This document shows, in pieces, positions 3,105-37,944 of a stretch of DNA of 38,185 nt (its first letter is position 1; each line of letters opens with the position of its first letter). The stretch spans positions 1 to 38,185 of the forward strand of contig JANXWM010000329.1 of assembly GCA_025351145.1 (NCBI GenBank). Reading direction: 5' to 3'. The notes beneath the pieces were generated by a model. That model had not been told where the DNA came from. It was given only the letters and a program-made list of their open reading frames with translations, and ran no database searches. This DNA is from Chitinophagaceae bacterium (GTDB lineage: Bacteria > Bacteroidota > Bacteroidia > Chitinophagales > Chitinophagaceae). The position numbers and the translations under genes are program-made.

Positions 3105-3160
3105 CAGCACATGTGCGACGCAAGTAAAGCTTTTTAACAATCAAAAGTTGGTTACACATA
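3105..3160 (+). repeat. Dispersed element copy 1 (degenerate 5' part)
   Basis: TGTGCGACGCAAGTAAAGCTT, 23-nt spacer, GTTGGTTACACATA tail. Confidence 0.75.
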
Positions 3161-3292
3161 TGTATAACTTAAAAAGCAATAGCATAAACTTTTTTGCAAC
3201 CCGTAAGGTTTTTATCTGTACTAAGCCCTTTTAATTTGTAAAATACTTTCTACCAATTGCTGTCGTTATTAAAGGCATATATAATTCTGCAA

Positions 3293-4051
3293 ATGATGCC
3301 CCTAAAAAAATTTCTGCTGATTATCTTTCCTGCAATTATTTTTTCCGGAGCTGCGGCACAGGAAGTTGTTTGGGAAAACCCAAAACTCAACACTGCAAAA
3401 AACGCAGTTTACATGAAGCAGGACGAAAAAGATATGATCTATGAAATTAACCGGCTGCGATCTGACCCACCGCGATATGCAAAACTTTTTGTGGCCATTC
3501 AATTAAAAAATGCATTGCAGGTTTTTAAAGAAGAAGGTAAAGGGGACAGCAGTTATTCTATTACCACTACTTACAGGGACAGCAGCATTACCCATATTGA
3601 TACCAACTGGCATTTTGTATTTGAAGAAGAACTGCATGCCCTGCAAACATTGTACGATACACTGATGCATTTAAAACCGCTTTCTATTTTATTGCCCGAT
3701 GAAGGCATTTATAATGCCTGTATAAAACATGCAAAAAACCGTGCTGCTGCCGGCAGTTTCGACCACATGGATACAGATGGTACATGGCCCTGGGACAGGA
3801 TATTAAAATATTCGCCCATGATGGAAGATGGCAATGAAAACCTTGCTTATAACGGAGAAGCCCCGGTGCGCATGATTGTGATGCAGTTGCTCAATGATGC
3901 CGGCATTGGTGGCTACGGCCACCGCTATAACATACTGGAGGCAAAGTGGACACATGTGGCCTGCTATGCTACAAGAAAACCACTGATGGATTCAAAATGG
4001 TGGATACAGGATTTTGGAAAAATAAGACCAAAACAAGCTAAAAAACAATAG
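3293..4051 (+). CDS. Secreted CAP/SCP-domain protein
   Basis: Signal peptide MMPLKKFLLIIF...AAAQ; EINRLR, FDH, ENLAY, GYGHRYNIL motifs; start moved from 3257 to ATG 3293. Confidence 0.85.
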   Translation: MMPLKKFLLIIFPAIIFSGAAAQEVVWENPKLNTAKNAVYMKQDEKDMIYEINRLRSDPPRYAKLFVAIQLKNALQVFKEEGKGDSSYSITTTYRDSSITHIDTNWHFVFEEELHALQTLYDTLMHLKPLSILLPDEGIYNACIKHAKNRAAAGSFDHMDTDGTWPWDRILKYSPMMEDGNENLAYNGEAPVRMIVMQLLNDAGIGGYGHRYNILEAKWTHVACYATRKPLMDSKWWIQDFGKIRPKQAKKQ

Positions 4052-4093
4052 GCTCAAAACTTCGCTTCGGTAAAAGCTGCATTACTTCAATCA

Positions 4094-4149
4094 GTACAAG
4101 AGTGCGACGCAACGGATGCTCAATTGGAATACATGGGCTGGGTACATAA
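4094..4149 (+). repeat. Dispersed element copy 2
   Basis: Exact core at 4094-4112, 24-nt spacer, GCTGGGTACATAA tail; upstream CGCTTCGGTAAAAGCT box. Confidence 0.9.
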
Positions 4150-4180
4150 TGATTAGTTTACGGCTTAACCTTTTGCTTGC

Positions 4181-4188
4181 TACATTTG
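4181..4188 (+). promoter_or_regulatory. -7 promoter element for ubiX
   Basis: TACATTTG, 22 bp upstream of the ATG. Confidence 0.6.
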
Positions 4189-4210
4189 TTTACATATAAA
4201 TATTTATACA

Positions 4211-4780
4211 ATGACAAATAAAATTGCAGTCGCAATAACCGGGGCAAGCGGTTCCATTTATGCAAAACTGCTGATTGAGAAATTGCTTACGCTGAAGGAT
4301 CAATGGGAGGAGCTGAGTTTGGTAATGAGCAATAACGCAAAGGAAGTTTGGCATACCGAACTGGGAAATGAAGATTACAAAAATTATCCTGTAAGATATT
4401 TTGACAAGCATGATTTTTCTGCTCCTTTTGCATCAGGTTCTGCAAAATATAATATAATGATCGTAGCTCCCTGCAGCATGGGCACACTGGGCAGGATTGC
4501 CGGTGGTATAAGCGACGACCTTGTAACACGTGCTGCCGATGTAATACTGAAAGAAAGAAGAAAACTGATACTGATGGTGAGGGATACGCCTTACAACCTT
4601 ATTCATATAAGAAACATGGAAACTGTAACGCTTGCCGGCGGTATTATTTGCCCTGCTACCCCATCTTTCTATAATAAACCACAAACAATTGAAGCGGTTG
4701 CCATTACGGTTATAGACCGGGTACTGGATATTGCGGGTTTTCAACTGGATACTTTTCGCTGGGGTACTGACTGCAAATAA
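4211..4780 (+). CDS. ubiX: Flavin prenyltransferase UbiX
   Basis: AITGASGSIY, APFASGS, APCSMGTL, RAADVILKERRKL, PATPSFY. Confidence 0.95.
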   Translation: MTNKIAVAITGASGSIYAKLLIEKLLTLKDQWEELSLVMSNNAKEVWHTELGNEDYKNYPVRYFDKHDFSAPFASGSAKYNIMIVAPCSMGTLGRIAGGISDDLVTRAADVILKERRKLILMVRDTPYNLIHIRNMETVTLAGGIICPATPSFYNKPQTIEAVAITVIDRVLDIAGFQLDTFRWGTDCK

Positions 4781-4809
4781 AAAGGCCCCGTCTTTAGACG
4801 GAGCCTTTT
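4779..4809. terminator. Bidirectional intrinsic terminator between ubiX and rpsA
   Basis: AAAAAGGCCCCGTCT-TT-AGACGGAGCCTTTT hairpin between convergent stops. Confidence 0.8.
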
Positions 4810-6956: not shown

Positions 6957-7016
6957 TTTTCAGGAGCCGGGCAGATGAAACCCTGATTGGGCTTTACTTG
7001 CGTCGCACTCTGGTAC
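6957..7016 (-). repeat. Dispersed element copy 3
   Basis: TTGCGTCGCACTCTGGTAC at 6998-7016, 25-nt spacer, tail GCCCGGCTCCTGAAAA. Confidence 0.9.
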
Positions 7017-7089
7017 TGCGGGATTATGAATCGGCATACCCCGATTGTAAGTTTTGCCGGGTTTTGAAATGTTCAATATTGTTCCGAAC

Positions 7090-7145
7090 GTACAAGAGTG
7101 CGACGCAAGGAACGATCAATAAAGATTAAATGCCGGGTACAAAAA
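7090..7145 (+). repeat. Dispersed element copy 4
   Basis: Exact core at 7090-7108, 23-nt spacer, GCCGGGTACAAAAA. Confidence 0.95.
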
Positions 7146-7164
7146 TTATTATAAAAAACTGGTT

Positions 7165-8110: not shown

Positions 8111-8122
8111 AAAGAACAACAT

Positions 8123-8957: not shown

Positions 8958-9018
8958 TTTTTTTATGGGCCAGGCAGATGAATTTCATGGCATCGCCTGT
9001 TGCGTCGCACTCTTGTAC
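8958..9018 (-). repeat. Dispersed element copy 5
   Basis: Exact core at 9000-9018, 24-nt spacer, tail GCCTGGCCCATAAAA. Confidence 0.95.
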
Positions 9019-9175
9019 TTTCGGATCATAATTGGGCTATCAACAGCCGGGGACGAGTAGCATTAATGGCAGTAATATTTTTGGCCTATAAATAAATGCA
9101 AACATTACCACAAGCACAATCCTTTCAAAAAACACAGCAGGACTGCATAGGAATTGCCCCGTAGAATTACCGAAC

Positions 9176-9233
9176 GTACAAGAGTGCGACGCAAGAAAAG
9201 CTTTATAGTATTCCCATTGCCCGGCCCAAAAAA
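9176..9233 (+). repeat. Dispersed element copy 6
   Basis: Exact core at 9176-9194, 24-nt spacer, GCCCGGCCCAAAAAA abutting TTA at 9234. Confidence 0.95.
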
Positions 9234-10817: not shown

Positions 10818-10872
10818 GATGTATCATTTTTTTCTGGCACTAATTTAGAATAATCGTGAATGTATTAAGAAG

Positions 10873-10928
10873 TTTTTTAACCAGGCATAAGACTATAAAG
10901 CGGCTTTACTTGCGTCGCACTCTTTTAC
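10873..10928 (-). repeat. Dispersed element copy 7
   Basis: TTGCGTCGCACTCTTTTAC at 10910-10928, 23-nt spacer, tail GCCTGGTTAAAAAA. Confidence 0.9.
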
Positions 10929-11026
10929 TCAATAACTTATTGAGCAAAAAAGCAGCCTTTGTGCCTTTTAAAAATAAATTTTTATGGCATTGAAATTTTG
11001 GGAGTTAGCTGATATATGTTCCAAAT

Positions 11027-11082
11027 GTACAAGAGTGCGACGCAAGTAAAGCCTGATAGCGTTCAAAATATCTGGCTAAAAA
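11027..11082 (+). repeat. Dispersed element copy 8
   Basis: Exact core at 11027-11045, 24-nt spacer, ATCTGGCTAAAAA. Confidence 0.9.
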
Positions 11083-11423
11083 TATCTGCCAAAACATTCA
11101 TTAGCAAAGATTAATAATTGTCAATTTTTATTATGCTTTATATTTTTTCGTCTTCACCCTGGCTGCTTTTTCTAAAAAATCAACTATGCCGGGCAGCAAT
11201 AAAACAAAACCCAAAACGCAGGCTTAACTATTCTTTTATCCAAATTGCGCCAAACTTGAAAAAAAATCATATTTTTATTTTCTTGAACAAAAAAAAATTA
11301 AAACACCTTCCTATGACCTTAACTACATTTAACCCAGAAAACGCCACATTCAAAAAGCGGGTTCGTTTAATTAGCCGTTTCTTGATAACAGGAAATAACA
11401 TATCACTATTTAATAAAATATCC

Positions 11424-12893: not shown

Positions 12894-12924
12894 AAAAAAG
12901 CTCCATTATTGATGGAGCTTTTTT
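12894..12924. terminator. Bidirectional intrinsic terminator
   Basis: AAAAAAGCTCCAT-TATTG-ATGGAGCTTTTTT. Confidence 0.85.
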
Positions 12925-12925
12925 A

Positions 12926-12985
12926 TTTGGTACCAGGCAAAAAGCCGGAATACTATTAAGTTTTACTTGCGTCGCACTCTTGTAC
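12926..12985 (-). repeat. Dispersed element copy 9
   Basis: Exact core at 12967-12985, 28-nt spacer, tail GCCTGGTACCAAA. Confidence 0.9.
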
Positions 12986-13029
12986 TGCATATCTTTATTG
13001 TACTTCAGGCCGTGTATGCAAATTCGTTT

Positions 13030-14181
13030 TTAAACAAGCAGTTCATTGAAAGCCGCGGGCAAAAAAACAGCCGCGGGCACACTGCCCATAATCTTTAATT
13101 CTTCGCTAAAATTTGTTTCATTGTCTAAAAACTTCAGCACACGCAGCGGCGGGTTTTTTTTAAAGAGTTGTTCAAATATTTTATCGCCACCCATTTTTTT
13201 CTGTTGAAGAATATTAAGTAAAACACTGTCGTATAAACCAAACCTTCTTTGCGAAAAAGATTGTGCAATATGCGGATTATTATTATTTACCAGCGCATTG
13301 CTTATTGCGTCCGCCTGCTTTTGTATAAACTGAAAAGTAAAGCCGCTGCTTGCTTTTGTTTGCCCACCTGCAGTGCCAATATTTATGATATTGCCGTAAG
13401 CTTTTGAGAATGAATAATCCGTCATCGGTATTACACCGAATTCTTCTTCAGCAACAGCGTAATTCCTGATTTCTAAATATGTTTCAATGTATTGCTTCAG
13501 GGCTTCATCGTACTCATGCGGCTGCAACAATTTTTCTGTAAAGAGTGTATATTCTACCAGCGCTATATTTGGTGATACGGGCAGCATATAAGCAAATGTG
13601 GTTCCGTGGTTTTGGCTCACCCGGAAATCCATAAAAGTCGCAACATGTTCATTAAAAACATTGGTGGGTGTTTCTATTAACCAGCCTTTAAAATGCTGCA
13701 GTAAATTGTATTTTCCTTTGGGTTCATTTAAAACATCGTAAAATAAAATGCTGTTGAAAATGTAACCGGCTTCAAACTGCTGATCACCGGCTTTTACAAT
13801 AGGTTTATTGTTTTCAGCGGTTAATGATTGAACCTTGCCATAATAAAAATGAATATTTGATTTTTGTTTTGCTTTTTCTAAAACGCAGTTATAAAAATCA
13901 ATCCCCCGGATCATTTTATACTCGTAAGGTTCAAGATCGAACCTTGCTAAGTAACCGGTTGAATAAAAATCAATCTGCTTCCATCGGTGATGAACAATTT
14001 CTTCAAATACGCCGGCCTGCTGTTCCCAAAAGCACCAGGTTCTGTCGTTGTTGTTTTTGGGCGACTGATCAATAACCAATATTTGCTTATCAATAAAGAA
14101 AGGATGCTGTATCATGCGGTAGAGCAGGCTTAAGCCTGCGCATCCTGCACCCGTGATGATATAGTCGTAATGATTGGTCAA
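13030..14181 (-). CDS. crtY: Lycopene beta-cyclase
   Basis: YDYIITGAGCAGLSL, NDRTWCFW, FMDFR, ALVEYT, EFGVIPM, IGTAGGQTKASSG; the first 24 codons of the tracked ORF lie in repeat DNA, so the start is probably TTG at 14181. Confidence 0.88.
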   Translation of the reverse strand: MTNHYDYIITGAGCAGLSLLYRMIQHPFFIDKQILVIDQSPKNNNDRTWCFWEQQAGVFEEIVHHRWKQIDFYSTGYLARFDLEPYEYKMIRGIDFYNCVLEKAKQKSNIHFYYGKVQSLTAENNKPIVKAGDQQFEAGYIFNSILFYDVLNEPKGKYNLLQHFKGWLIETPTNVFNEHVATFMDFRVSQNHGTTFAYMLPVSPNIALVEYTLFTEKLLQPHEYDEALKQYIETYLEIRNYAVAEEEFGVIPMTDYSFSKAYGNIINIGTAGGQTKASSGFTFQFIQKQADAISNALVNNNNPHIAQSFSQRRFGLYDSVLLNILQQKKMGGDKIFEQLFKKNPPLRVLKFLDNETNFSEELKIMGSVPAAVFLPAAFNELLV

Positions 14182-14219
14182 TAGTGTGTGGCTGTTGAAA
14201 GCTGAATCAATATCTGAAC

Positions 14220-14273
14220 GTACAAGTGTGCGACGCAAGGAACGATCAATCAATGAACTTCTGTTGGGTTAAA
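14220..14273 (+). repeat. Dispersed element copy 10 (overlaps the crtZ 3' end)
   Basis: GTACAAGTGTGCGACGCAA at 14220-14238, 24-nt spacer, GTTGGGTTAAA. Confidence 0.9.
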
Positions 14274-14750
14274 GGTATTGTTCTTAATTGCCTCATCACG
14301 TTTTATTTTGTCCCAATATTTTTTTGCAATGATGAGCATACCAAAACTTTCGCCGTCTTCTTTTTCTAAATGTTTGTGATGCATTTTATGCGCCCAGCGA
14401 ATGGCATTTACATAGCGGCTGCTGCTTTTAGCAAACAGTTTAAAACGTTGATGAATGATAATTTCGTGCACCAGAAAATAAGCAAACCCATATAGGGCAA
14501 TACCGGCACCAATGCTTACAGAAATACAGTTTTGGTACATGCTGCCCAGCATAATACAAAGCCAGCTTGGTATGGCAAAAATGAGGAAAAATGCATCGTT
14601 TTTTTCGAAGAAACCTTTGGCGGGTTTATGATGATCTTCGTGCAGGTACCAGAGAAAACCATGCATTACATATTTATGTGTAAACCATGTAATGGGTTCC
14701 ATTAAAACGAACACAGCAATTGCAATAAAAATATAAATAATGAGGCTCAT
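14250..14750 (-). CDS. crtZ: Beta-carotene hydroxylase
   Basis: HKYVMHG, HEDHH, FEKND, HEIIIHQR and HKMHH histidine boxes. Confidence 0.93.
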   Translation of the reverse strand: MSLIIYIFIAIAVFVLMEPITWFTHKYVMHGFLWYLHEDHHKPAKGFFEKNDAFFLIFAIPSWLCIMLGSMYQNCISVSIGAGIALYGFAYFLVHEIIIHQRFKLFAKSSSRYVNAIRWAHKMHHKHLEKEDGESFGMLIIAKKYWDKIKRDEAIKNNTFNPTEVH

Positions 14751-15436
14751 AAAAATGTTTGAAGCACGAGGAAAAACAATAACTGTATAATAAACAAATG
14801 TACTGCGAATTGGTTGTGTTTATCGAATTTCATAAAGCGGAAAACTGTTAATAGCGTCGCGCTGATGATGAACCAGCAGAGATAATTGTACAAGGGTATT
14901 TCGCCATTGGGCAGCCATTGCCAGAAACCAAGCTGCTGCGCCGCAGGCTCCATTATCCAGTCGAAAAAAGTAGCGAGCATAGCGGCATCTATAACAAAAG
15001 AAAACAGCTTTACATAATTGGAAGGCTGGTTATTTGCTTCCAGTTTTCTATACACCCATTCACTTACTCCATTTGTAATTGTGCCTGCGCAAAACATAAT
15101 TACAAACCAATTAATGCCGATCACTAAAGGCACAGCAAAAATTTTATTTCCAAGAACATCGCCGTAACGGTAGTTACCAAAAAGATAGCCGGTATTAACG
15201 CCAATAATTTCGGTAAGCATGCCTGTTGCAAAACATAAAATTATAAAGCCATAAAAAGCAATATTTTTTTCCCGTTGAGTGAACAGCAGCAAAGCCGCCA
15301 TGAGTAAGAGGTTGAGCGGCGTATTGCTGATAAACCATGCTTTATACGGCGTAAACAAAATACCAATTACACCGCTTACATGAAACAGCAGCGCAATAAA
15401 TAAAGCAATATTTGTTTTTTGTTTATAAGAGATCAC
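14747..15436 (-). CDS. cruF: Carotenoid biosynthesis membrane protein, CruF-like 1,2-hydratase
   Basis: EIIGVNTG.LFGNY.Y...LG.KI..VPL.IG.NW, D..MEP.A..LGFW.W, PLYNY..WF; location in the crt cluster. Confidence 0.8.
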   Translation of the reverse strand: MISYKQKTNIALFIALLFHVSGVIGILFTPYKAWFISNTPLNLLLMAALLLFTQREKNIAFYGFIILCFATGMLTEIIGVNTGYLFGNYRYGDVLGNKIFAVPLVIGINWFVIMFCAGTITNGVSEWVYRKLEANNQPSNYVKLFSFVIDAAMLATFFDWIMEPAAQQLGFWQWLPNGEIPLYNYLCWFIISATLLTVFRFMKFDKHNQFAVHLFIIQLLFFLVLQTFL

Positions 15437-15456
15437 TCGTTGTTAATTGGTAATGA

Positions 15457-15514
15457 TTTTTTGTACCGGGCAGCATTACTACTATTTGGCTTCTGTTGCG
15501 TCGCACCCTTGTAC
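15457..15514 (-). repeat. Dispersed element copy 11
   Basis: TTGCGTCGCACCCTTGTAC at 15496-15514, 24-nt spacer, tail GCCCGGTACAAAAAA. Confidence 0.95.
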
Positions 15515-15573
15515 TGCAGTAATACCGTGGAGCAATAAACAGCCAGCTTTCCGTCCGGTTAATGTAAAACAGT

Positions 15574-17058
15574 TTACTCAAAATCCTCTGCCACTATTTC
15601 ACTCAAAATTTTTGCACTTTTTAAACACAACGGAATACCACCACCAGGATGCACGCTGCCCCCTGCAAAGTACAACCCTTTTATTTGTTTACTAAAATTG
15701 GGGTGCCGCAGAAATGCCGCCATTTTTGAATTGGAACTGCTGCCATACAGGGAACCCATATAAGAAGATGTTTTTTCTTCGATCATAATAGGGGCAAGTA
15801 CTTGTTCCGTTTCTATTAATGGCTCAATATCAGTTTTTAAAATACGGTTGAGTTTATTAATTATATTTTTTCGGCATTGCTGGTTGTACAAATCCCAGTC
15901 CTGGCCAATATTGGCTGGTGCATTTACCATTACAAACCAGTTCTCTTTTCCAGCAGGAGCCTGGATGCCCGGCTCACATTTACTCGTGATATTGATGTAA
16001 ACAGTAGGGTCGCTAAATAGTTTTTTGTACTTGAACAAATGATCAAATTCTGCCTTATAATTTTCACTGAAAAAAATGTTGTGCAATTCCAGTTGTGGAA
16101 ATTCCGCGGACATACCCCAGTAGAAAACCATGGCACTACTGCTGCGTTCCTGCTTTAATATTTGTCTTGATTTTATTTCATCGTTTAATAAATATTTATA
16201 AGTGCCATAAACATCCATATTGCTTACCACAATATCAGCATCTATGTTTTGGTGACCCGCAACAATGCCTTTTATTTTTCCCTGGTTTTCAATAATTCTT
16301 TGTACAGGCTGATTAAAATTAAACTGCACCCCCATTTTTAAAGCCAATTGATATAGTGCATTAGTAATGCTGATCATACCGCCTTTGGGATAAAAAATTC
16401 CTTCGTTGTATTCAAGATGGGGAATAAGGCAAAGCATACCCGGAGCTTTATAAGGATTGCTGCCATTGTAAGTAGCATACCGGTTGAACAACTGAACAGT
16501 ATGTGGATTTTTAAAGTAAGAACTGTTAACCTGGTTCATACTTTTAAAAAGGTATTTCCATTTAACAGAGCTGATTGCTTTTTTAAGCGGAGCCTTAAAA
16601 AGTGATCTTAATTTATGCAATGAGTAATTAAGAAATACCCTGCCAATATTGTTGTATAATTTTTCTGAATGCTGCAGATATTGCTTTAGATTATTTTTAT
16701 CTTCTTCCAGCTTATCAGACAGTTCTTCAGCGAATTTTTCTGAATCGCCATAAGCATTAATTATGGCACCATCTTCATAAAAATACTTACATGCAATTGA
16801 TACAGGTGTATAGTGAAAATAATCATTGATGTTTTCACCAGCCAGTTCAAAAAGTTCTTCAATATTGTATGGCTGTGTAAACAGGCTCGGGCCAGCATCG
16901 AAATGAAAGCCTTCTTTTTCAAAGTGGCTTAACTTACCGCCAGGATACTCATTTTTTTCAAACACTGTTACTTGCAAACCCTGCACCGCAAGCCGTATTG
17001 CACTGGCAAGGCCAGCAACGCCACTTCCTGTAACTATTGCGTGTAAAGGAGTTTTCAT
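15574..17058 (-). CDS. crtD: 1-hydroxycarotenoid 3,4-desaturase
   Basis: GSGVAGL, FDAGPSLFT, RYATYNGSNPY, LYGSSSN...AFLRHPN, GGSVHPGGGIPLCL. Confidence 0.85.
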   Translation of the reverse strand: MKTPLHAIVTGSGVAGLASAIRLAVQGLQVTVFEKNEYPGGKLSHFEKEGFHFDAGPSLFTQPYNIEELFELAGENINDYFHYTPVSIACKYFYEDGAIINAYGDSEKFAEELSDKLEEDKNNLKQYLQHSEKLYNNIGRVFLNYSLHKLRSLFKAPLKKAISSVKWKYLFKSMNQVNSSYFKNPHTVQLFNRYATYNGSNPYKAPGMLCLIPHLEYNEGIFYPKGGMISITNALYQLALKMGVQFNFNQPVQRIIENQGKIKGIVAGHQNIDADIVVSNMDVYGTYKYLLNDEIKSRQILKQERSSSAMVFYWGMSAEFPQLELHNIFFSENYKAEFDHLFKYKKLFSDPTVYINITSKCEPGIQAPAGKENWFVMVNAPANIGQDWDLYNQQCRKNIINKLNRILKTDIEPLIETEQVLAPIMIEEKTSSYMGSLYGSSSNSKMAAFLRHPNFSKQIKGLYFAGGSVHPGGGIPLCLKSAKILSEIVAEDFE

Positions 17059-17095
17059 AACCGTTTGGTAAAAGCTGAAAGTTAGTTACAAATGA

Positions 17096-17623
17096 TTATT
17101 GAAAAGATAATTGCTGATTCCACCAATTTTGAATTTGTGGAAATGCAATAATAAACCACACAGAATATTTATGCGGGTTAATTTTTAGACTGGCTTCAAT
17201 ATCATTCATCGATTTGTAAGTATAGTCTTGAACTTCATCCGGATTAGGAAGAATAGCATCGTTGAAGGTGCCTGTAAAAACATGATCAAATTCGTGCTCG
17301 GTTAATCCGTTGTCGAAAGATGCTTTATAGGTAAATTCAAATATTTTTTTTAGTGGGGTTTCAAAACCCAGTTCTTCTTTTAATCTTCTTTGTGAGGCAG
17401 CTAAAACATCTTCTCCCGGGCGGGGATGGCTACAGCAGGCATTGGCCCATAAGCCTGCACTATGGTATTTTTTTGCTGCTCTTTGCTGCAGCAGCATTTC
17501 TCCTTTGGTATTAAAAATAAAAACACTTATAGCCCGGTGCAGCAATGCTTTTTCATGGGCTTCCATCTTTTCCATTAAGCCCGCTTCTTCGTCCCGTTCA
17601 TTTACCAGAATAACTTGTTCCAT
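17096..17623 (-). CDS. idi: Isopentenyl-diphosphate delta-isomerase, type 1
   Basis: LHRAISVF, W.NACCSHP, RRLKEELG, EHEFDHVF. Confidence 0.95.
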   Translation of the reverse strand: MEQVILVNERDEEAGLMEKMEAHEKALLHRAISVFIFNTKGEMLLQQRAAKKYHSAGLWANACCSHPRPGEDVLAASQRRLKEELGFETPLKKIFEFTYKASFDNGLTEHEFDHVFTGTFNDAILPNPDEVQDYTYKSMNDIEASLKINPHKYSVWFIIAFPQIQNWWNQQLSFQ

Positions 17624-17715
17624 GTGTTAAAAATAAGCATTAGCCTGAGTTGTAACCCATACAGCGTGTTGATATTTATTTTGCTTTTGCATTTAGTGCT
17701 GCCAATGGGTATGCT

Positions 17716-17773
17716 GTACAAGAGTGCGACGCAAGTAAAGCTTCATAGATATTCTTTGCCCGGTAAAAAAAAA
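17716..17773 (+). repeat. Dispersed element copy 12
   Basis: Exact core at 17716-17734, 23-nt spacer, GCCCGGTAAAAAAAAA ending 1 nt from the crtB stop. Confidence 0.95.
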
Positions 17774-17774
17774 T

Positions 17775-18611
17775 TTACAATAAATTAAACTGGCTCCTAA
17801 GGCTTGCTTTAGCTACAATAAAAGCCTTTCCATAATTGGGTATGCGCACCCGCTCTTCAAGAATGGTATGCGGTTGTAACTTCTTTATTTTTTTAAAAAG
17901 CGATAGGTAATATTTATAAGCAACATATACGCCAAACCGTGCTTTAGAGGGCAATTGAACAATGCCTTTATAAGCATGATCAAAGTCTTTCTGAATGTCT
18001 TCTTCAATTGCACGCTTCTGCGGTTCGGTAAAATTCCTGAAATCGCAGCCGGGAAAATACATGCGGTTCAATCCTTCGAAATCATTCTTGATATCGCGTA
18101 AAAAATTTACTTTTTGAAATGCCGCACCAAGGCTTCCTGCATAAGGTTTTAACTGCTCATATTGCGCAGCATTACCTTCGCAAAAAACGTATAAACACAT
18201 TAAACCAACCACTTCGGCGCTGCCATAAATATATTCTTCATAACCACCTGCATCGTATTTATGATTACTTAAATCAAGCTCCATGCTTGTAAAGAAAGCA
18301 TCCACAAACTGCAGGTCAATTTTAAAATAATTTACTGTTATCTGAAAGCTGTGCAAGATGGGATTGAGGCTTATTTTCCGTTCTATAGCCAGGTAAGTTT
18401 CTTTCTTAAATTCGGCCAGCAGTGTGGCTTTATCATAGCTGTGAAAGGTGTCTACAATCTCATCAGCAAAACGCACAAACCCATATATATTGTGTATATG
18501 CGGCCGCAGGTCTTTATTCAAAAGTTTTATGGCCGATGAAAAAGAAGTGCTGTACCGCTGCGTTGTAGCCCGGCTGCACTCTTCACTCACTTCATGAAAA
18601 AGTTTCATCAT
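17775..18611 (-). CDS. crtB: Phytoene synthase
   Basis: YSTSF, YGFVRFADEIVD, YIYGSAEVVGLMC, LGAAFQKVNFLRD. Confidence 0.95.
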   Translation of the reverse strand: MMKLFHEVSEECSRATTQRYSTSFSSAIKLLNKDLRPHIHNIYGFVRFADEIVDTFHSYDKATLLAEFKKETYLAIERKISLNPILHSFQITVNYFKIDLQFVDAFFTSMELDLSNHKYDAGGYEEYIYGSAEVVGLMCLYVFCEGNAAQYEQLKPYAGSLGAAFQKVNFLRDIKNDFEGLNRMYFPGCDFRNFTEPQKRAIEEDIQKDFDHAYKGIVQLPSKARFGVYVAYKYYLSLFKKIKKLQPHTILEERVRIPNYGKAFIVAKASLRSQFNLL

Positions 18612-18668
18612 TTTTTGTTACCAGCTTTTAGTTCTTTGGTCATCGCCTCTTGTGTCACTCACTTGTAC
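18612..18668 (-). repeat. Dispersed element copy 13 (diverged core)
   Basis: TTGTGTCACTCACTTGTAC at 18650-18668, 24-nt spacer, tail GCTGGTAACAAAAA running into the crtB ATG. Confidence 0.8.
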
Positions 18669-18760
18669 GTTCCATGTATATTGAGCTTTTACCAAAGCGA
18701 ATATTTAAATACAATTTTAAACGAAAAATGTTTTTATAAATAAGCAATTTTAAAAGTGAT

Positions 18761-20257
18761 TTAATTTCCAAAAGCTTTGATCACTTCTTTTGCAACCACT
18801 TCGCCGCTTATTAAACTTGGCGGAACACCCGGCCCCGGAACCGTTAGCTGACCTGTGTAAAAAAGATTCTTTACTTTTTTACTGCGGCACGCCGGTTTCA
18901 AAACCGCAGTTTGCATTAGCGTATTCGCCAACCCATAAGCATTTCCCTTAAAAGCATTGTAATCATTTACGAAATCACTGTGGGCATAAGTTTTTTTATA
19001 GATAATACTATCCATTATATTTTGGCCGATGCGTTTTTCCATTCTTGTAACAATCATTTCAAAATATCGTTCACGCAATTCTTCAGAATCATTTGCCAAG
19101 CCTGCAGCTACAGGAATTAGAAAAAATAAATTTTCGCAACCTTCCGGTGCAACTGTGTTATCCGTTACAGATGTTGCACTAACATAAAATAATGGATCTT
19201 TCGGCCATTCTTTTGTTTCATAAATTTCTTTACCATGCACTTCAAATGAAGTATCGAAGAACAAAGAATGATGACGTATATCCGTTAGTTTTTTATTTAA
19301 CCCAACATAATAAATAAGGCAACCAGGAGCCATTACACGGCTATTCCAATAACTCTCTGTATAACTTTGATATGTTTTGGACAATAATGCAGTTTCAATA
19401 TGGTGATAGTCTGCACCACCAATTATTACATCTGCTTCATACGTATTTGTCTGTTTACCATTTAAAGTTGTTGTAACTACTTTTTCGGCAGCGCTATTTT
19501 CAACAACAATTTCACTTACATCAGAGTTAAAATAAAATTTAACACCAAGCTCCACAGCAAGTTTATACATGCCTTCCACAATACTGTACAATCCACCTTC
19601 TGGATACCAGGTGCCGCCTTTAATATCCGCATAATTCATCAGGCTGTAAAGCGCTGGGGTTTTCTCGGGTAAAGCACCAAGAAACAGCACAGGAAATTCC
19701 ATTAGCTGCTTTAATGACGGATGCTTGAAATACTTGCTCACATGCGTTTTTATGGAATTAAACACTTCAAGCCGGAGTATTCCGGTTACCAGATCCCAGT
19801 CTAAAAATTCAGTTAGTGATTGCCCCGGTTTATATACTAATTTATTTATTCCAACTTTATATTTATAAGAAGCCTCTTCAAGAAATTTGTCTAATTGAAC
19901 AGAACTACCTGGCTCTATGCTCTCGAATAATTGTTTAAAGGCATTATAGTCTGCAGGGATATCTGTCTCGTTGTTTTCCCAATAAACCCTGTAAGAAGGG
20001 TTAAGACGATGGAGCGCATAATAATCTGAAACTTTTTTACCGAACGAATTAAAGAAATGTTCAAAAACATCGGGCATCCAGTACCAGCTTGGGCCCATAT
20101 CAAAAGTGAAACCATTTGCTTTTAGCTGTCTTGCCCTGCCTCCCGGAATATCATGTTTTTCAAGCACAGTAACCTGCCATCCTGCTTTAGCCATAAAACA
20201 TGCTGCCGATAAACCGGCAAAACCAGCACCAATGATGATAACTTTTTTGTTCACCAT
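18761..20257 (-). CDS. crtI: Phytoene desaturase
   Basis: IIGAGFAGL, FDMGPSWYWMPD, GNAYGLANTL.QT, GQLTVPGPGVPPSLISG. Confidence 0.93.
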   Translation of the reverse strand: MVNKKVIIIGAGFAGLSAACFMAKAGWQVTVLEKHDIPGGRARQLKANGFTFDMGPSWYWMPDVFEHFFNSFGKKVSDYYALHRLNPSYRVYWENNETDIPADYNAFKQLFESIEPGSSVQLDKFLEEASYKYKVGINKLVYKPGQSLTEFLDWDLVTGILRLEVFNSIKTHVSKYFKHPSLKQLMEFPVLFLGALPEKTPALYSLMNYADIKGGTWYPEGGLYSIVEGMYKLAVELGVKFYFNSDVSEIVVENSAAEKVVTTTLNGKQTNTYEADVIIGGADYHHIETALLSKTYQSYTESYWNSRVMAPGCLIYYVGLNKKLTDIRHHSLFFDTSFEVHGKEIYETKEWPKDPLFYVSATSVTDNTVAPEGCENLFFLIPVAAGLANDSEELRERYFEMIVTRMEKRIGQNIMDSIIYKKTYAHSDFVNDYNAFKGNAYGLANTLMQTAVLKPACRSKKVKNLFYTGQLTVPGPGVPPSLISGEVVAKEVIKAFGN

Positions 20258-21059: not shown

Positions 21060-21116
21060 GTACAAGTGTGCGACGCAAGAGGCGATGCCCAATGTTATGA
21101 AAGCCGGGTAAATAAA
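21060..21116 (+). repeat. Dispersed element copy 14
   Basis: GTACAAGTGTGCGACGCAA at 21060-21078, 24-nt spacer, GCCGGGTAAATAAA. Confidence 0.93.
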
Positions 21117-21179
21117 CTTTTGTTTTGAAATTTAAATCCTCATAAACTTTATGACTCAAAAGGAAATAAGCATAGTGAA

Positions 21180-22058
21180 TCAAAGTACTGTAATGTACTC
21201 CATTACTTCGTGCAGGGAACGCTTGAGATGAGTATTGGAAGGCGTTTTTTTCTTATAAGCTTGCGAAACCTGGCCGGATATAATCAATGGCGTTGCGGGG
21301 ATCCGGAGATTGATCTTAGTAAGAAATTTTTCAAAATTAAAATGCTGCGCAACAGATGTAAGGTGAGCATACAAAAAATCTGGTTTTTTTAATTTTGTAA
21401 CATACTCAATATCTGCCAAAGGCACGTTGGCCCCAATGTACAAAACCTTTACCCCCCTGCTTTTCAGCAGATAATACATGAACAGTAAACCCAGCTCATG
21501 GTGCTCGCCTTCGGGCAGAAAAAGCAATGCCGTTTTGTTCACTTTTATGTGGCAGATCGTACTCTCTATACCCACAATTAACTTTTGCCTGATGATATTT
21601 GTAACAAGATGTTCCTGTGCCGGATTAATATGATTGGTAACCCACAGGATGCCAATTTTTTCGAGGTATGGAAAGATAATATAAGTAATGGTTTTTTCTA
21701 TGCCACGTGCAGATATATAATTGTCAAGCACCGTTTCAAATGAATCCATATCCATGTCAGCCATGTGCTGTATCAGGTCATTGATGATGCGTTCCTGATT
21801 TGCTTCAGCCTGCGAAAGAGAAAGTATTTTGTCTTTAATTTCGCTGCTGCTCATCTTATCAATATGCGAAATTTTAAAGCCGTATTTATTGAGCAGTGAA
21901 ATATTTAAAATCGTTTTTAATTCATCGTTCGTATAGTACCGTATATTGGTTTCGGTGCGCTGCGGATTTAAAAAAGAATAGCGCTGCTCCCATATACGAA
22001 TGGTATGCGCTTTTATACCAGAGAGGCTTTCCAGGTCTTTTATTGTAAAGGCATTCAT
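21180..22058 (-). CDS. MerR-family regulator with cobalamin-binding domain (CarH/LitR-like)
   Basis: SGIKAHTIRIWEQRY HTH; W-x9-EH (WVTNHINPAQEH) and E-x-H-x2-G (EHHELG). Confidence 0.9.
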   Translation of the reverse strand: MNAFTIKDLESLSGIKAHTIRIWEQRYSFLNPQRTETNIRYYTNDELKTILNISLLNKYGFKISHIDKMSSSEIKDKILSLSQAEANQERIINDLIQHMADMDMDSFETVLDNYISARGIEKTITYIIFPYLEKIGILWVTNHINPAQEHLVTNIIRQKLIVGIESTICHIKVNKTALLFLPEGEHHELGLLFMYYLLKSRGVKVLYIGANVPLADIEYVTKLKKPDFLYAHLTSVAQHFNFEKFLTKINLRIPATPLIISGQVSQAYKKKTPSNTHLKRSLHEVMEYITVL

Positions 22059-22136
22059 AATATGTATTACAATATTCCGTATTTATTTGTTTAATCTGGT
22101 ATCTATTTTTTTTAAACAATAAAATTAGAGAAAATG

Positions 22137-22192
22137 TTTTTTTACCGGGCAATAAATCCACACTCATCGTTCCTTGCGTCGCACTCTTGTAC
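22137..22192 (-). repeat. Dispersed element copy 15
   Basis: Exact core at 22174-22192, 23-nt spacer, tail GCCCGGTAAAAAAA. Confidence 0.95.
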
Positions 22193-22288
22193 TTCATAAG
22201 ATTTATCGTCAATGGGCTAACTATTTTCAAACCGCTGTGTTATTTAGCCGGTATTTATTGTTTTGAAAATTAACCAGGCTTTACACTT

Positions 22289-22435
22289 ATGAAACAAAAG
22301 AAAAAAGAAAACTTTCCTTCTAAAATCTGTTTTGTTTGCGGCAGGCCCTTTTCCTGGCGCAAAAAATGGGAAAAGGTTTGGGCCGAGGTAAAATACTGCA
22401 GCAATAAATGCAGGCAACACAAATCATCAACCTAA
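22289..22435 (+). CDS. DUF2256-like small Cys-rich protein (48 aa; absent from the ORF track)
   Basis: [48 protein letters not shown]. Confidence 0.88.
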
Positions 22436-23148
22436 ATAGCCTGGTGATTAAACGGCTGCAGCACCATTTCGCTAACCACGCCGCTTACAGGCTGCTGGCA
22501 AAGAAACCAGATTGCTTTTGCTGCTTCTTCCGTATTGATCATTTTATCTTTTTGTACCCGCAGGTCAATCACATCCCAGAAAGGAGTATTCACGCCGCCC
22601 ATAAATAAATTGGTAATCCTGATATTGGTTCTTTTTAATTCTTCTCTTATGCTTTGCATCATTCCTACAAGTCCGTATTTACTTGCACTGTAAGCCGCAG
22701 CACCAGCCATTGGTACTTTGCCCAGCACGCCGGGAATATTGATAATAAGCCCTGTTTTAGCTTCTTTCATTGCAGGCAGAAAAGCTTTTACCAAAAGAAA
22801 ACTTGCCACCAGATTGGTATTTAAAGATTGCAGAAAATCGGGTTCACTTAACTGCTCAAGAGGTTTAATGATCCCGATGCCTGATGTATTTACCAGCACG
22901 TCAATAGTTTGAAACACTTGAAAATAGGCTTGTTTAAGCAACTCTACCTGGGTGCTGTTGCATAGGTCGGCAGCAAACATTCTTTCTTCCGGTATTTTGT
23001 TTTCAACACCAATTTGCCCCAGTTTTTCTTTATTACGACCAGTAATAAACACATTGGCGCCGCCGCTTACAAGCAACTTAACCGTGTGCGAACCTATTCC
23101 GCCTGTGGCACCGGCTACAAGGATATTTTTCCCTTTTATTGTTTCCAT
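22432..23148 (-). CDS. SDR-family oxidoreductase
   Basis: GATGGIG and YSASK motifs. Confidence 0.92.
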
Positions 23149-23276
23149 AGTTTTTAAATATATAGTTGCTCAAAATTTTTGTTACAACAAAAGCATGTAT
23201 CAATTGTTCTCTAACGTTGAATAAAGCACGGGCTTTAAGATACGCTTCGGTAAAAGCTTCATTCATATCCTGCAGA

Positions 23277-23334
23277 TGAAAGGATTGCGACGCAACAGGC
23301 GATGCCATGAAATACTACAGCCGGTATTACAAAA
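23277..23334 (+). repeat. Dispersed element copy 16 (5' core diverged)
   Basis: TTGCGACGCAACAGGCGATGCC, 24-nt spacer, GCCGGTATTACAAAA; upstream CGCTTCGGTAAAAGCT identical to 4063-4078. Confidence 0.85.
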
Positions 23335-25401: not shown

Positions 25402-25461
25402 TTTTTTTTGACCCGGGCAGCAGAATATCTATTCACCGTTCCTTGCGTCGCACTCTTGTAC
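25402..25461 (-). repeat. Dispersed element copy 17
   Basis: Exact core at 25443-25461, 24-nt spacer, tail GCCCGGGTCAAAAAAAA. Confidence 0.95.
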
Positions 25462-25654
25462 GTTCAGAATTCTATTCAGCCAAAAGACCAGCAAAAATTG
25501 AAAATCCTCTTTTCAAGGCACATTTTTGAGGATATACAGATTAAGTATGTGGATTAGTTGTGGGAGCATATATTTCCTGTAATGGAAAAAAATGTTAGAT
25601 TGCGTTGGTTTATTACGCAGTAAAGCTATTACTAACCATTAAATTATTAGAAAC

Positions 25655-25955: not shown

Positions 25956-26013
25956 TTTTTTTGAGCCAAACAACGGTTATTTGGGCATCGTTCCTTGCGT
26001 CGCACACTTGTAC
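25956..26013 (-). repeat. Dispersed element copy 18
   Basis: TTGCGTCGCACACTTGTAC at 25995-26013, 23-nt spacer, tail GTTTGGCTCAAAAAAA. Confidence 0.9.
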
Positions 26014-26082
26014 AGTATAACATTTGGTGACTTTCAACAGCCAATACACCCAACTGCAAAATCCGGGGTTAAATAAAATTAA

Positions 26083-28184: not shown

Positions 28185-28299
28185 GGATTTGTGAACTATT
28201 TAGATAATTCTGTAAAATTATTGATACGGCAGTCTGCTGGTATTACCTTCGGTTCTGAGCGGGGCATGGCTGTTGGTTTTGCTGCTGCATAATCCGAAC

Positions 28300-28357
28300 G
28301 TACAAGAGTGCGACGCAAGGATGCTTAATACTTATTCCGATGCCCGGTCCCAAAAAA
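28300..28357 (+). repeat. Dispersed element copy 19
   Basis: Exact core at 28300-28318, 23-nt spacer, GCCCGGTCCCAAAAAA abutting the TGA at 28358-28360. Confidence 0.95.
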
Positions 28358-32261: not shown

Positions 32262-32321
32262 TTTTTTATGAGCCGGCCAGAAGGTTCTTTGTGGATCGGC
32301 TGTTGCGTCGCACTCTTGTAC
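32262..32321 (-). repeat. Dispersed element copy 20
   Basis: Exact core at 32303-32321, 24-nt spacer, tail GGCCGGCTCATAAAAAA. Confidence 0.95.
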
Positions 32322-32497
32322 AGTTGCGAATTTTGTGGGGCTTTTAGCGAAGCGGAATTTGAAGTTAATGTTGCTTACTAGACAAGCATACAAAGAAAAC
32401 TTTCAACAAACGGTTGATATATGTATGAAAATGGTAAACATTAGTTAATGAAAAAGTTTTATAATTTTGGAAAGTTTTATCTTATAAAAAAATATAA

Positions 32498-33330: not shown

Positions 33331-33512
33331 TAGATTTACGGGCTTGAGGTTTATATTATTAATTGCTTAAAAATAATCAAATAGAAAAACTCTATAAGAT
33401 ATATTCCTTGCACCAATGACACAGCAATAATATTGTCGCCATTGTTAGAGTTACCTCCAATAACTTTTACTTTAATCTTTGCTCCAATAAAAGCCCAATA
33501 TATAATCCAACC

Positions 33513-33571
33513 GCCGCAGTGTGCGACGCAAGTAAAGCTTCATTCATATTCTCTCAGCCTGGTACAAAAAA
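33513..33571 (+). repeat. Dispersed element copy 21 (variant subfamily)
   Basis: GCCGCAGTGTGCGACGCAA, 25-nt spacer, GCCTGGTACAAAAAA abutting the TAA at 33572-33574. Confidence 0.9.
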
Positions 33572-34547: not shown

Positions 34548-34610
34548 GCTTACTGGCTTATTGTTCGCTTTAATCTACGCTGCGATAAAAGCTCAATATA
34601 CAATCCAACC

Positions 34611-34669
34611 GCTGCAGAGTGCGACGCAAGTAAAGCTTTATACATTTCAAAAGCTGGGCTCAAAAAAAA
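34611..34669 (+). repeat. Dispersed element copy 22 (variant subfamily)
   Basis: GCTGCAGAGTGCGACGCAA, 23-nt spacer, GCTGGGCTCAAAAAAAA. Confidence 0.9.
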
Positions 34670-36082: not shown

Positions 36083-36088
36083 ATTCTT

Positions 36089-36799
36089 ATGAAAAAGTTT
36101 ATTCAGGTAACCATAATTGCTTCGGCAATTTTTTTCTGCGGTTCGCATTCTATAGCACAACCGCACAGCCTTTTTAATGGTAAAGATTTAAGCGGCTGGC
36201 ATGTGGATGTTCCTGCAATGGATACCGATAAGGCGGCCATCAATCCATTCATTGTGCGCAATGGAATGCTGGTAAGCCTTGGTACGCCGGGCGGCCATCT
36301 TATTACCGATTCTGTTTACCATAACTACCGGTTAAATGTTGAATACCGTTTTGCCGGTGTGCCCGGAAACTGCGGTGTGCTTGTGTTTGCCAGCACGCCA
36401 CGTGCTTTGTATAAGATGTTTCCGAAGTCTATTGAGGTGCAAATGCAGCATGGCGATGCAGGCGATTTCTGGTGCATAGTAGAAGATATTACTGTGCCCG
36501 ATATGGAAAAACGCCGCGGGCCAAAAGCCGACTGGGGAATTACAGAAGGCAAGGGAAGGCGCATCTTAAACCTTACCGACAGCTCTGAAAAACCTGTGGG
36601 CGAATGGAACAGCATGACCATTGAAGTGGAGGGCAATTCAATAAAAGTTTGGGTAAACGGCGACCTGGTAAATTATGGTTATAATTCTACTGCTGATAAA
36701 GGAAGTATTGCCCTGCAGGCTGAAGGTTCGGAAGTGGAATTTCGTAGGGTGGAGATAATGCCCATTAAAAAACTCAGCAGTAAACAAAACACGCATTAG
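36089..36799 (+). CDS. DUF1080 (3-keto-disaccharide hydrolase-like) protein
   Basis: LFNGKDLSGW, GN.G, EVQM, GEWN, VNG, G.IALQAEG..VEFR. Confidence 0.9.
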   Translation: MKKFIQVTIIASAIFFCGSHSIAQPHSLFNGKDLSGWHVDVPAMDTDKAAINPFIVRNGMLVSLGTPGGHLITDSVYHNYRLNVEYRFAGVPGNCGVLVFASTPRALYKMFPKSIEVQMQHGDAGDFWCIVEDITVPDMEKRRGPKADWGITEGKGRRILNLTDSSEKPVGEWNSMTIEVEGNSIKVWVNGDLVNYGYNSTADKGSIALQAEGSEVEFRRVEIMPIKKLSSKQNTH

Positions 36800-37624
36800 A
36801 TGATAAAAATTATCGCCTGCTTCCTGGTATTGCAGTTAACCTTTACCCATGTTATCGCACAAAACAAAACTGTTGATTACGGCAACAATCCATCGGCAGG
36901 AAAATATTATAACATACGTGGTTTTAAAATGTATTGCGAAGTATATGGCAGCGGCAAACCGCTCCTCCTGATTCATGGCAATGGCGGCAACATCAGTGCG
37001 TTCAAAAACAATATTTCTTATTTCGCAAAAAAATATAAAGTAATTGCTGTTGACAGCCGTGCCCACGGCAAATCAACAGACAACAGTGATTCATTAAGTT
37101 TCGAAATGATGGCAGATGATTTTGCTGCTTTACTCACTGCCATGCACATTGATTCGGCTTATGTTATCGGCTGGAGCGATGGCGGTATCAATGCTTTGCT
37201 GCTCGCCATGCGCCACCCTGAAAAAGTAATAAAGCTTGCTTCAACCGGTGCAAATTTGTGGCCCGATTCTACGGCGCTCATCCCTTCGTTGTGGAAAGAC
37301 GAAAAAAGAAATTTTGATGAGCATGCAAATAAACCTTTCGGTAAGGCGAAAGAAAAAAACGACTGGAAAATATTTATGCTCGACTGGCTGCAGCCCAACA
37401 TTCCATTATCGCAACTGCATTCCATACAATGTCCTTCACTGATCATCAGCGGCGATCACGATTTAATTACGTTAGAGCATACCGTGCAAATTTACCAGAA
37501 CATTCCCCATGCGTATTTATGGATATTGCCCAACTCAAGCCACGGAACATTGATAGACCATAAAGATGATTTCAATAAAAAAGTGGATGATTTTTTTACA
37601 ATGCCTTTTCATAGCTGGAACTAG
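36800..37624 (+). CDS. Secreted alpha/beta hydrolase
   Basis: LLIHGNGG, DSRAHGKS, GWSDGG, GDHD, SH. Confidence 0.92.
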   Translation: MIKIIACFLVLQLTFTHVIAQNKTVDYGNNPSAGKYYNIRGFKMYCEVYGSGKPLLLIHGNGGNISAFKNNISYFAKKYKVIAVDSRAHGKSTDNSDSLSFEMMADDFAALLTAMHIDSAYVIGWSDGGINALLLAMRHPEKVIKLASTGANLWPDSTALIPSLWKDEKRNFDEHANKPFGKAKEKNDWKIFMLDWLQPNIPLSQLHSIQCPSLIISGDHDLITLEHTVQIYQNIPHAYLWILPNSSHGTLIDHKDDFNKKVDDFFTMPFHSWN

Positions 37625-37628
37625 AATA

Positions 37629-37687
37629 TTTTGAGCCAGGCAAAAGAAGTTTTTCATGGCATCGTCCCTTGCGTCGCACTCTTGTGC
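37629..37687 (-). repeat. Dispersed element copy 23
   Basis: TTGCGTCGCACTCTTGTGC at 37669-37687, 27-nt spacer, tail GCCTGGCTCAAAA. Confidence 0.9.
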
Positions 37688-37735
37688 TGAGGTAATTCTA
37701 CCGATCACACGAAGATGATCTAAGCGTGTAGCTTT

Positions 37736-37789
37736 GGCTAAAGCCCGAACATCACGCAAGTTTTAAACCCAAGGCATAAACCTTGGGTT
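37736..37789. repeat. Half copy of the CTAAAG-loop palindromic family
   Basis: GGCTAAAGCCCGAA (same as 28127-28140) followed by hairpin AACCCAAGG-CATAAA-CCTTGGGTT. Confidence 0.55.
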
Positions 37790-37886
37790 AAAAAAAACAA
37801 ACCAACAGGCATAAACCAAAGTGCCGGCTGCAATAAATTTTTTACGCAAATAACGTTGTTGCACATTGCTCATTAATGTTCCGAAC

Positions 37887-37944
37887 GTACAAGAGTGCGA
37901 CGCAACTAAAGCTTCATAGAAATGCTTCTGCCCGGTACAAAAAA
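37887..37944 (+). repeat. Dispersed element copy 24
   Basis: Exact core at 37887-37905, 24-nt spacer, GCCCGGTACAAAAAA abutting the TAA at 37945-37947. Confidence 0.95.

Follow-up and report, generated by a model that had tools for sequence, protein, structure and literature searches.

The 38,185-nt stretch analysed here (contig JANXWM010000329.1, positions 1 to 38,185; hereafter the window) is contig C513 of a Chitinophagaceae genome that we call G000 (GCA_025351145.1; 5.39 Mb in 799 contigs, with ∼ 6% of the genome missing). The 31 window proteins that were scanned are ordinary ones (ribosomal protein S1, Mfd, carotenoid genes, a restriction-modification cluster), and none is a transposase or recombinase; an earlier, sequence-only reading of the window had likewise stated that it has none cognate to the ∼ 80-bp directional element dispersed among these genes. 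A profile hidden Markov model (HMM), applied at a 10-bit cut-off with the reversed genome as control, finds exactly 24 copies of this element between positions 3083 and 37944, the number given by that reading. We count positions in the element from the first base of its 19-nt core (0), with the tail side downstream and the upstream side opposite. A T interval lies between inward-pointing tails (a plus-strand site, then a minus-strand one), a U interval between outward-pointing tails (minus, then plus), and a doublet is a U-type pair of closely spaced sites. Comparisons were made with three congeners (G001, G002 and G003) and with a single-contig genome of another genus (G216). The features of the window are as follows.

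190..2918: element-free restriction-modification cluster (EcoO109I-like endonuclease, HNH protein, N4/N6 methylase)
3083..3161, plus strand: site 1, diverged core 3105-3123, found by the profile HMM
4072..4151, plus strand: site 2, core 4094-4112; gene order breaks here relative to G001
6958..7038, minus strand: site 3, core 6998-7016; with site 2 it brackets a backbone module of a flavoprotein and ribosomal protein S1
7017..7089, no strand: empty tail-outward (U) spacer of the doublet of sites 3 and 4
7068..7146, plus strand: site 4, core 7090-7108
8961..9040, minus strand: site 5, core 9000-9018
9154..9233, plus strand: site 6, core 9176-9194; doublet with site 5
10872..10950, minus strand: site 7, core 10910-10928
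11005..11084, plus strand: site 8, core 11027-11045; doublet with site 7
12924..13007, minus strand: site 9, core 12967-12985; 28-nt spacer
13030..23148: carotenoid cluster with a MerR/B12 regulator and an ECF sigma factor; order conserved in the three congeners
14198..14277, plus strand: site 10, core 14220-14238; gene order breaks here relative to G001 alone, G002 and G003 retaining the junction
15457..15536, minus strand: site 11, core 15496-15514; within the carotenoid cluster
17694..17772, plus strand: site 12, core 17716-17734
18611..18690, minus strand: site 13, variant B core GTACAAGTGAGTGACACAA, 18650-18668
21038..21117, plus strand: site 14, core 21060-21078
22136..22214, minus strand: site 15, core 22174-22192
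23255..23334, plus strand: site 16, shifted-variant core 23277-23295
25404..25483, minus strand: site 17, core 25443-25461
25957..26035, minus strand: site 18, core 25995-26013; same orientation as site 17, an exception to alternation
28278..28356, plus strand: site 19, core 28300-28318
32263..32343, minus strand: site 20, core 32303-32321; with site 19 it brackets the Mfd backbone module
33491..33571, plus strand: site 21, diverged core 33513-33531
34589..34667, plus strand: site 22, diverged core 34611-34629
37627..37709, minus strand: site 23, core 37669-37687; 27-nt spacer
37865..37944, plus strand: site 24, core 37887-37905; doublet with site 23

Twelve of the window cores are exact copies of GTACAAGAGTGCGACGCAA, seven carry one mismatch and five are more diverged (cores 3105, 18650, 23277, 33513 and 34611); 19 matches at three or fewer mismatches compare with 0 expected from 100 shuffles. 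The whole of G000 holds 1,400 exact cores and 3,034 HMM matches, against none in the reversed genome, or 3,025 after removal of split matches, which is about one site per 1.8 kb. The parts of the element follow in one order: box, 19-bp core, second box and A-rich tail. The upstream box, near -22 to -14, is degenerate: the AAAGCY motif that the sequence-only reading had taken as a general part occurs literally in only 7 of 24 window copies and in 885 of 2,617 genome-wide, and a looser box, [AT]G[CT][CT][CG]A, is present in 2,064 of 2,610 copies. The core is near-invariant, its variants in G000 being GAGTGCGACGCAA, GTGTGCGACGCAA, GTGAGTGACACAA and the shifted GATTGCGACGCAA. Many copies carry a second copy of the box from +21, the upstream matrix matching again with ends at +42 to +44; the distal spacer, previously described as free in sequence, is therefore not so. 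Its fixed length did hold: 23–25 nt in 22 of the 24 window copies (27 and 28 in the other two) and in 2,411 of 2,617 copies genome-wide, the tail being too weak to place in 112. The tail itself, GCCNGG..CAAAAAA, spans +43 to +57. The hexamer GTACAA recurs in it in copies 4 and 24, as had been noticed, and also in copies 11 and 21, so that four copies have it rather than two; the 5′ hexamers of the element are GTACAA, GCACAA, GTATAA and GTAAAA. By a crude open reading frame (ORF) caller, 179 of 2,612 copies in G000 overlap an ORF and only 7 lie more than 150 nt from either ORF end, in agreement with the earlier description of the copies as essentially all intergenic.

No folding signal was found in 120 copies examined as RNA and DNA on both strands (mean z -0.28 to +0.32), and the sole compensatory change in the core is at +11/+15. 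The Rfam covariance models gave no match at the gathering threshold in the window and 17 weak ones in 6900-13100, all far below it. The element has no terminal inverted repeats (upstream and tail hexamers match in 100 cases against 83 ± 8 by chance), and free palindromic ‘empty’ target sites were not evident, strong lone upstream halves being mostly sites interrupted by other repeats. Given the lack of both a folding signal and an Rfam match, the element is most simply viewed as a putative double-stranded, directional protein site.

The sequence-only reading had not remarked on orientation, in which 20 of the 23 neighbouring pairs in the window alternate. Throughout G000, 1,923 of 2,283 neighbouring sites (84%) do so. 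With doublets collapsed, 369 of 1,650 pairs have the same orientation, compared with 750 ± 20 expected from 500 randomisations; alternation is seen among single sites only (710/845) and within runs of same-strand genes (362/449), as well as in 400 kb sampled from G216 (166 of 182 neighbours). At distances of 1.5–3 kb, direct pairs make up 42–50% of all pairs but only 24% (173/727) of adjacent pairs. Because direct pairs are common overall at this distance and scarce among neighbours, the alternation rule concerns order, not distance or gene strand.

The sites divide the chromosome into tail-inward backbone modules of ∼ 2 kb and tail-outward modules that are either empty or hold low-GC accessory genes. 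T intervals total 1.92 Mb; the lengths of these convergent intervals peak near 2 kb, and the genes in them are core genes with a GC content of 0.411. A U interval is either an empty doublet (647 divergent pairs are closer than 300 bp) or contains genes with a GC content of 0.374. Genes of G001 with an orthologue in G000 make up 269 of 379 in T intervals as opposed to 51 of 114 in U intervals (p=6e-7). In the carotenoid cluster, which is same-strand and unrearranged, gene order and most of the alternating sites are kept in four species. Correlating gene-level skew across junctions gave too weak a signal to be useful.

Comparison of the copies with one another indicates that flanking DNA has been exchanged at the core. 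In G000, 581 of 675 pairs of sites with at least 51 of 60 identical upstream bases have unrelated downstream halves. Among 71 non-redundant spanning pairs with near-identical upstream halves, 54 have downstream halves that match at chance level; some of these represent one repeat or insertion sequence (IS) family inserted at many sites, and not all are independent. Mismatches in the 54 pairs number about 5 against 32 expected at -8 to -1, 2 against 11.1 at +1, 5 against 12.1 at +3, 18 against 24.8 at +7, 8 against 3.0 at +14 and 40 against 35.1 at +20, from where they are at chance level. Mutual information places the split in linkage between +3 and +7. By these sequence comparisons the two halves are shown to assort independently, with the switch between about +4 and +13. 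Among 950 U intervals, 26 pairs share whole spacers of 63–101 bp at 90–100% identity; 23 of these pairs could be scored, and in 22 both tails are unrelated. No duplicated T interval was found among 768. In G001, 19 of 22 near-identical upstream halves are joined to unrelated downstream halves; an assembly artefact is disfavoured because this genome repeats the half-swapping with spacer families of its own. Window sites 3 and 11 are each bridged by an independent contig. Five of the 71 spanning pairs lie on the same contig, which suggests local copying. Tandem units made up of cargo and an upstream half were seen ahead of intact sites, the units ending between +8 and +13, and +12/+13 is the break point in 54 of 115 interrupted cores. 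The four sediment read runs that were consulted are contigs of one study, in which all listed joints have fewer than 41 letters on a side and are uninformative on population-level rearrangement; no RNA data set was listed among the holders. The earlier proposal of a multi-site protein-binding or recombination site, rather than a repetitive extragenic palindromic (REP) hairpin or a terminator, is borne out by the absence of folding, by the fixed geometry and by the mapping of flank exchange to the core.

Between species, the window is spread over many contigs in G001–G003, with breaks at the sites. Gene order was compared with G001 over 1.13 Mb (about a fifth), 44 junctions that were undecidable at contig ends being dropped: breaks affect 78 of the 142 site-bearing junctions, compared with 17 of the 148 that lack a site, and in a portion chosen regardless of the window the figures are 58/100 and 12/99. 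When only junctions that are not operon-like are considered, the contrast falls to 78/139 versus 14/52 (odds ratio 3.5, p=3e-4), and the raw contrast is thus largely a matter of operon structure. The corresponding counts are 17/27 and 3/29 in G002, and 10/21 and 7/42 in G003. At broken junctions, the gene on the tail side keeps its polarity in 69 of 78 cases; it keeps the tail in 22 of 69 but the upstream half in only 5 of 69 (chance 4.3%), while conserved junctions keep both (26/64 and 25/64, respectively). In a search for clean empty/filled pairs, 29 junction alignments against G001 were too diverged to fix the ends, and two look like deletions between repeated boxes. Synteny controls consisted of three 15-kb windows from zero-copy genomes, the copy numbers of their comparison partners being mostly uncounted; they were collinear over 12.4 kb at 75–81% (G213/G337), over 7.7 kb at 66–81% (G036/G348, G270) and over 5.9 kb, with the rest patchy (G221/G115). 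As for closer relatives, a scan of metagenomes gave two loci at 79–82%, and the genus of G216 comprises two genomes at 74–81%.

The distribution of the element was surveyed with exact matches to a 15-nt core pattern in 300 genomes of the family. It matches 178 of the 300, from single matches up to ∼ 2,450, and leaves 122 without an exact match; more than 1,400 copies are present in eight of 301 genomes, spread over four genera, and the core sequence is the same across the family. Outside it, 9 of 237 genomes have one or two matches, fewer than the backward control (16). The element is confined to one family, the Chitinophagaceae, a name that rests on record titles: for the 80 loci listed, these give Chitinophagaceae genera or unclassified Chitinophagales or Bacteroidota. 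Cultured carriers include Foetidibacter luteolus YG09 and Limnovirga soli KCS-6. Sixty stretches of viral contigs carry sites at low density, with no pointer to an enzyme in them.

On balance we think it probable that this ∼ 80-bp directional site, with its about 3,000 alternating copies, is the site of a putative dedicated, trans-acting recombination system, the chromosome being an array of alternating modules. A protein would bind the invariant core, and accessory proteins would bind the two boxes at their fixed spacing. A single crossover between inverted sites would invert the block between them and keep the alternation, and two crossovers, at both ends of a U module, would exchange it with a sister chromosome or with DNA entering the cell, thereby accounting for the copied spacers, the accessory genes in U intervals and the untouched T intervals. 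Each doublet could act as a landing pad for modules, and same-orientation neighbours may arise on loss of one doublet member. By analogy with the C and D modules described in PMC13141974, any conservative exchange between like-oriented halves should preserve alternation.

Several observations weigh against this account. The exchange zone is broad rather than a single bond, +7 being only partly linked from either side, and breaks between species show no sharp cut, as +19 to +46 is kept at 10 of 69 broken junctions and 24 of 64 conserved ones. Polarity on the upstream side is kept in 15 of 27 broken cases. Loss of gene order is also seen in a zero-copy control, where a distant congener from a near-empty genus (G336) is scattered. 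Shuffling is not rampant, since third-position GC skew still tracks the two chromosome halves in G216. In low-copy genomes the copies are mostly single, inside conserved operons (putatively, from their N-termini, such as rpoB-rpoC, rpsD-rpoA and trpF-trpB), with no partner or enzyme alongside; these lone copies are either relics or products of single-site insertion, and a dedicated system does not explain them. The element has no dyad of binding arms, which tyrosine and serine recombinases need. Finally, no cognate recombinase was found in G000, a negative result that falls short of showing absence, most proteins of this assembly being unannotated and 6% of the genome missing.

The search for an enzyme also counts on that side. 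Four tyrosine recombinases are encoded in G000, labelled XerC, XerD and IntI-like by our reading of their size and motifs. The IntI-like integrase has relatives in 118 of 300 family genomes; it has no match at 1e-70 in G003 or G216 and does not track copy number. Nor is copy number tracked by the fourth tyrosine recombinase, for which 23 of 301 genomes gave a match, G001 and G019 not among them. An origin from Y2 transposases (IS91/ISCR) was rejected, as no PF04986 was found in G000, G001 or G003. In this check, which covered three high-copy genomes of the genus (94–100% complete), the exception was a single match in G002, at a locus with no element at its end, and not one of 17 Y2 loci has the element as its terminus. 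The RAYT partner that the sequence-only reading had suggested looking for did not emerge, as the four Y1 genes of G000 and those listed from five relatives carry repeats of their own. IS110 has no match in G101, a genome with 1,534 copies. A regex search of the G000 assembly for a small GIY-YIG nuclease found none. G000 also has three large serine recombinases.

The chief alternative to a dedicated recombination system is that the element is a non-autonomous mobile repeat, similar to REP sequences or to transposable elements of the miniature inverted-repeat type (MITEs), in which the 19-bp core offers passive homology for RecA or single-strand annealing, and swaps, inversions and uptake are by-products. 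We regard this as possible but doubtful. The broad crossover zone favours host homologous recombination, and the partial loss of +19 to +46 at breaks agrees with it, as do the lone copies in conserved operons, copy numbers ranging from 1 to about 2,450 and the failure to find a dedicated recombinase. Cores of variant B, moreover, pair with A cores less often than expected (4 against 8.3 at +9, 2 against 8.0 at +11, 3 against 8.2 at +15), which homology dependence predicts. Alternation by order, on the other hand, favours a dedicated enzyme: if direct repeats were purged for being prone to deletion, distance would be what counts, yet about half of the pairs beyond 1.5 kb are direct, and alternation holds in the unrearranged same-strand cluster common to four species. 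The lack of terminal inverted repeats, with end hexamers matching at about chance, also argues against a mobile repeat, as does a core and spacing that stay fixed while the flanks diverge.

A bolder form of the dedicated system would be a new class of recombinase, with a site design unlike those of Xer, integron, serine and IS110 enzymes, that has turned whole chromosomes into about 1,500 swappable module pairs, some 650 empty doublets serving as docks for foreign genes and even ribosomal-protein and Mfd genes lying in invertible modules, a natural means of scrambling the genome and exchanging cassettes; we put this forward tentatively, as a speculation that is rather unlikely to hold in full. 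It is improbable that the element is instead an oriented site for a chromosome-organising protein, convergent pairs anchoring ∼ 2-kb loops and divergent doublets forming boundaries where breaks and insertions are tolerated or exposed. The order-based alternation, the ∼ 2-kb convergent intervals with core genes, the toleration of lone copies and the retention of sites at orthologous positions (of 80 conserved junctions at which either genome has a site, 47 agree in state) would fit such a protein, but by itself it explains neither the half-switching inside the core nor the copied outward modules, and an exact match is lacking in 122 of the 300 family genomes. Least probable of all is the action of host XerC/XerD (pdif-like) or of an IS110-type guided recombinase (bridge-RNA-like). 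In favour of it, no site-specific recombinases other than the two ∼ 300-aa Xer-like tyrosine recombinases were seen in every one of the five high-copy genomes checked, the insertion point of a six-copy IS is core AG +5/+6, inside the exchange zone, and the core that IS110 elements use is short (CT in IS621; PMC11208160). Against it, the dif candidate of G000 is unlike the element, -12 to -1 does not follow the tail-side gene, which excludes a Xer spacer upstream of the core, the end of that IS was not found in G001–G003, G216 or G109, and G101 lacks an IS110 match.

Comparison with known systems brings out both likenesses and differences. In the pdif/dif modules of Acinetobacter plasmids, as here, two classes of module in alternation are set off by asymmetric sites of alternating orientation, the crossovers of inversions and exchanges lie inside the site (a feature seen for our element by comparative means) and modules fuse after site loss (PMC13141974). 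The element lacks the XerC-6 bp-XerD layout, the arms tabulated in PMC13141974 are not in its logo, and it measures ∼ 80 bp with repeated boxes as against 28 bp for pdif; its ∼ 3,000 chromosomal copies bracket housekeeping genes, compared with a handful of plasmid pdif sites. A scan with a dif pattern gave a single candidate chromosomal dif site, on C606 near position 4361 (minus strand), unlike the element. The NIMEs of Neisseria resemble it in that short repeats, dRS3, flank many families of 50–150 bp spacers and are targeted by other mobile elements, and dRS3 has been hypothesised to consist of recombinase sites that promote exchange with incoming DNA (PMC1797815). However, dRS3 is a 20-bp palindrome in local arrays, whereas the element is non-palindromic, directional, unrelated in sequence and present once or twice per junction, and it alternates over gene-length distances (PMC1797815). 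REP, BIME and REPIN sequences share with it high copy number, intergenic location, inverted doublets about 100 bp apart and a role as targets for insertions (PMC6006769, PMC3733652, PMC2817692, PMC3116915). Unlike them, the element has no hairpin, no GTAG/GTGG/CGTC tag and no RAYT flanked by it, and shows long-range alternation and independently assorting halves. From MITEs it differs in being a single unit without inverted ends, with doublets copied without their tails. Integron attC sites are repeated sites for cassette uptake that fold and lie in one direction. The element is like them in having accessory genes as cassettes at repeated sites, but it alternates, does not fold and does not track the IntI-like gene.

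The core strings are absent from two supplement files of PMC6006769 and four of PMC3733652, and a core-string search of the literature returned only unrelated eukaryote papers. No description was found in Rfam, in these REP-survey supplements or in the literature searched, in line with the earlier statement that no described family was recognised; subscription journals, ISfinder, figure images (the subclass 2.6 repeats in PMC6006769) and bioRxiv supplements (the MITE survey 10.1101/2024.01.18.576219) lay outside this scope and could hold the repeat. The element is real, family-wide and apparently undescribed, and it apparently works like dif modules and NIMEs but belongs to neither. Known modules built on directional sites in alternation involve a few sites on plasmids, and the same logic here spans the whole chromosome, housekeeping genes included, in at least four genera. 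If the dedicated system exists, it would explain how a common environmental family could lose gene order rapidly and take up accessory genes in a targeted way. The dRS3-type hypothesis of repeats as recombinase landing pads would become testable in a cleaner system, and the putative enzyme might be of use for cassette exchange.

Several other repeats are found at or near the sites. The six-copy IS-like element, whose body is unassembled, is flanked on each side by the AG dinucleotide, has imperfect inverted repeats close to its ends and is possibly of IS110/IS1111 type. Its left ends are on G000 contigs C1, C29, C402, C409, C505 and C758 and its right ends on C67, C68, C100, C120, C575 and C637; a similar left end occurs in G388 (L501), and other matches to the family pattern are due to chance. 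In G000, a family of 24–27 nt hairpins is inserted exactly after core +12 (about 16 resolved cases), a 16-nt palindrome replaces core +12 to +14 (10 cases), an inverted-repeat element of ∼ 270 bp with a 9-bp duplication interrupts a core on C110, and CGTC-type repeats of the GTCATTGCGAGG and GCCGTCATGCTGAA families nest in doublets. The Y1 genes on C559, C52, C169 and C415, three of them subclass-1.2-like and one subclass-2.6-like, are each flanked by their own palindromic repeat, and several Y1 loci lie in U intervals; subclass 1.2 Y1 transposases have been described as generally lacking flanking palindromic repeats.

Among other recombinase loci, the divergent tyrosine recombinase family found on C326 of G000 is represented seven times, by near-identical copies, on C1 of G290, a genome with no element match. 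On C222 (8534-12522), the gene for the IntI-like tyrosine recombinase is followed by an integron-like array, in which long imperfect inverted repeats lie between small same-strand ORFs. The longest element-free stretches of G000 (C83, 33.5 kb; C701; C467; C162) have a lower GC content and resemble an integrative island that carries a large serine recombinase and clusters of glycosyltransferase type.

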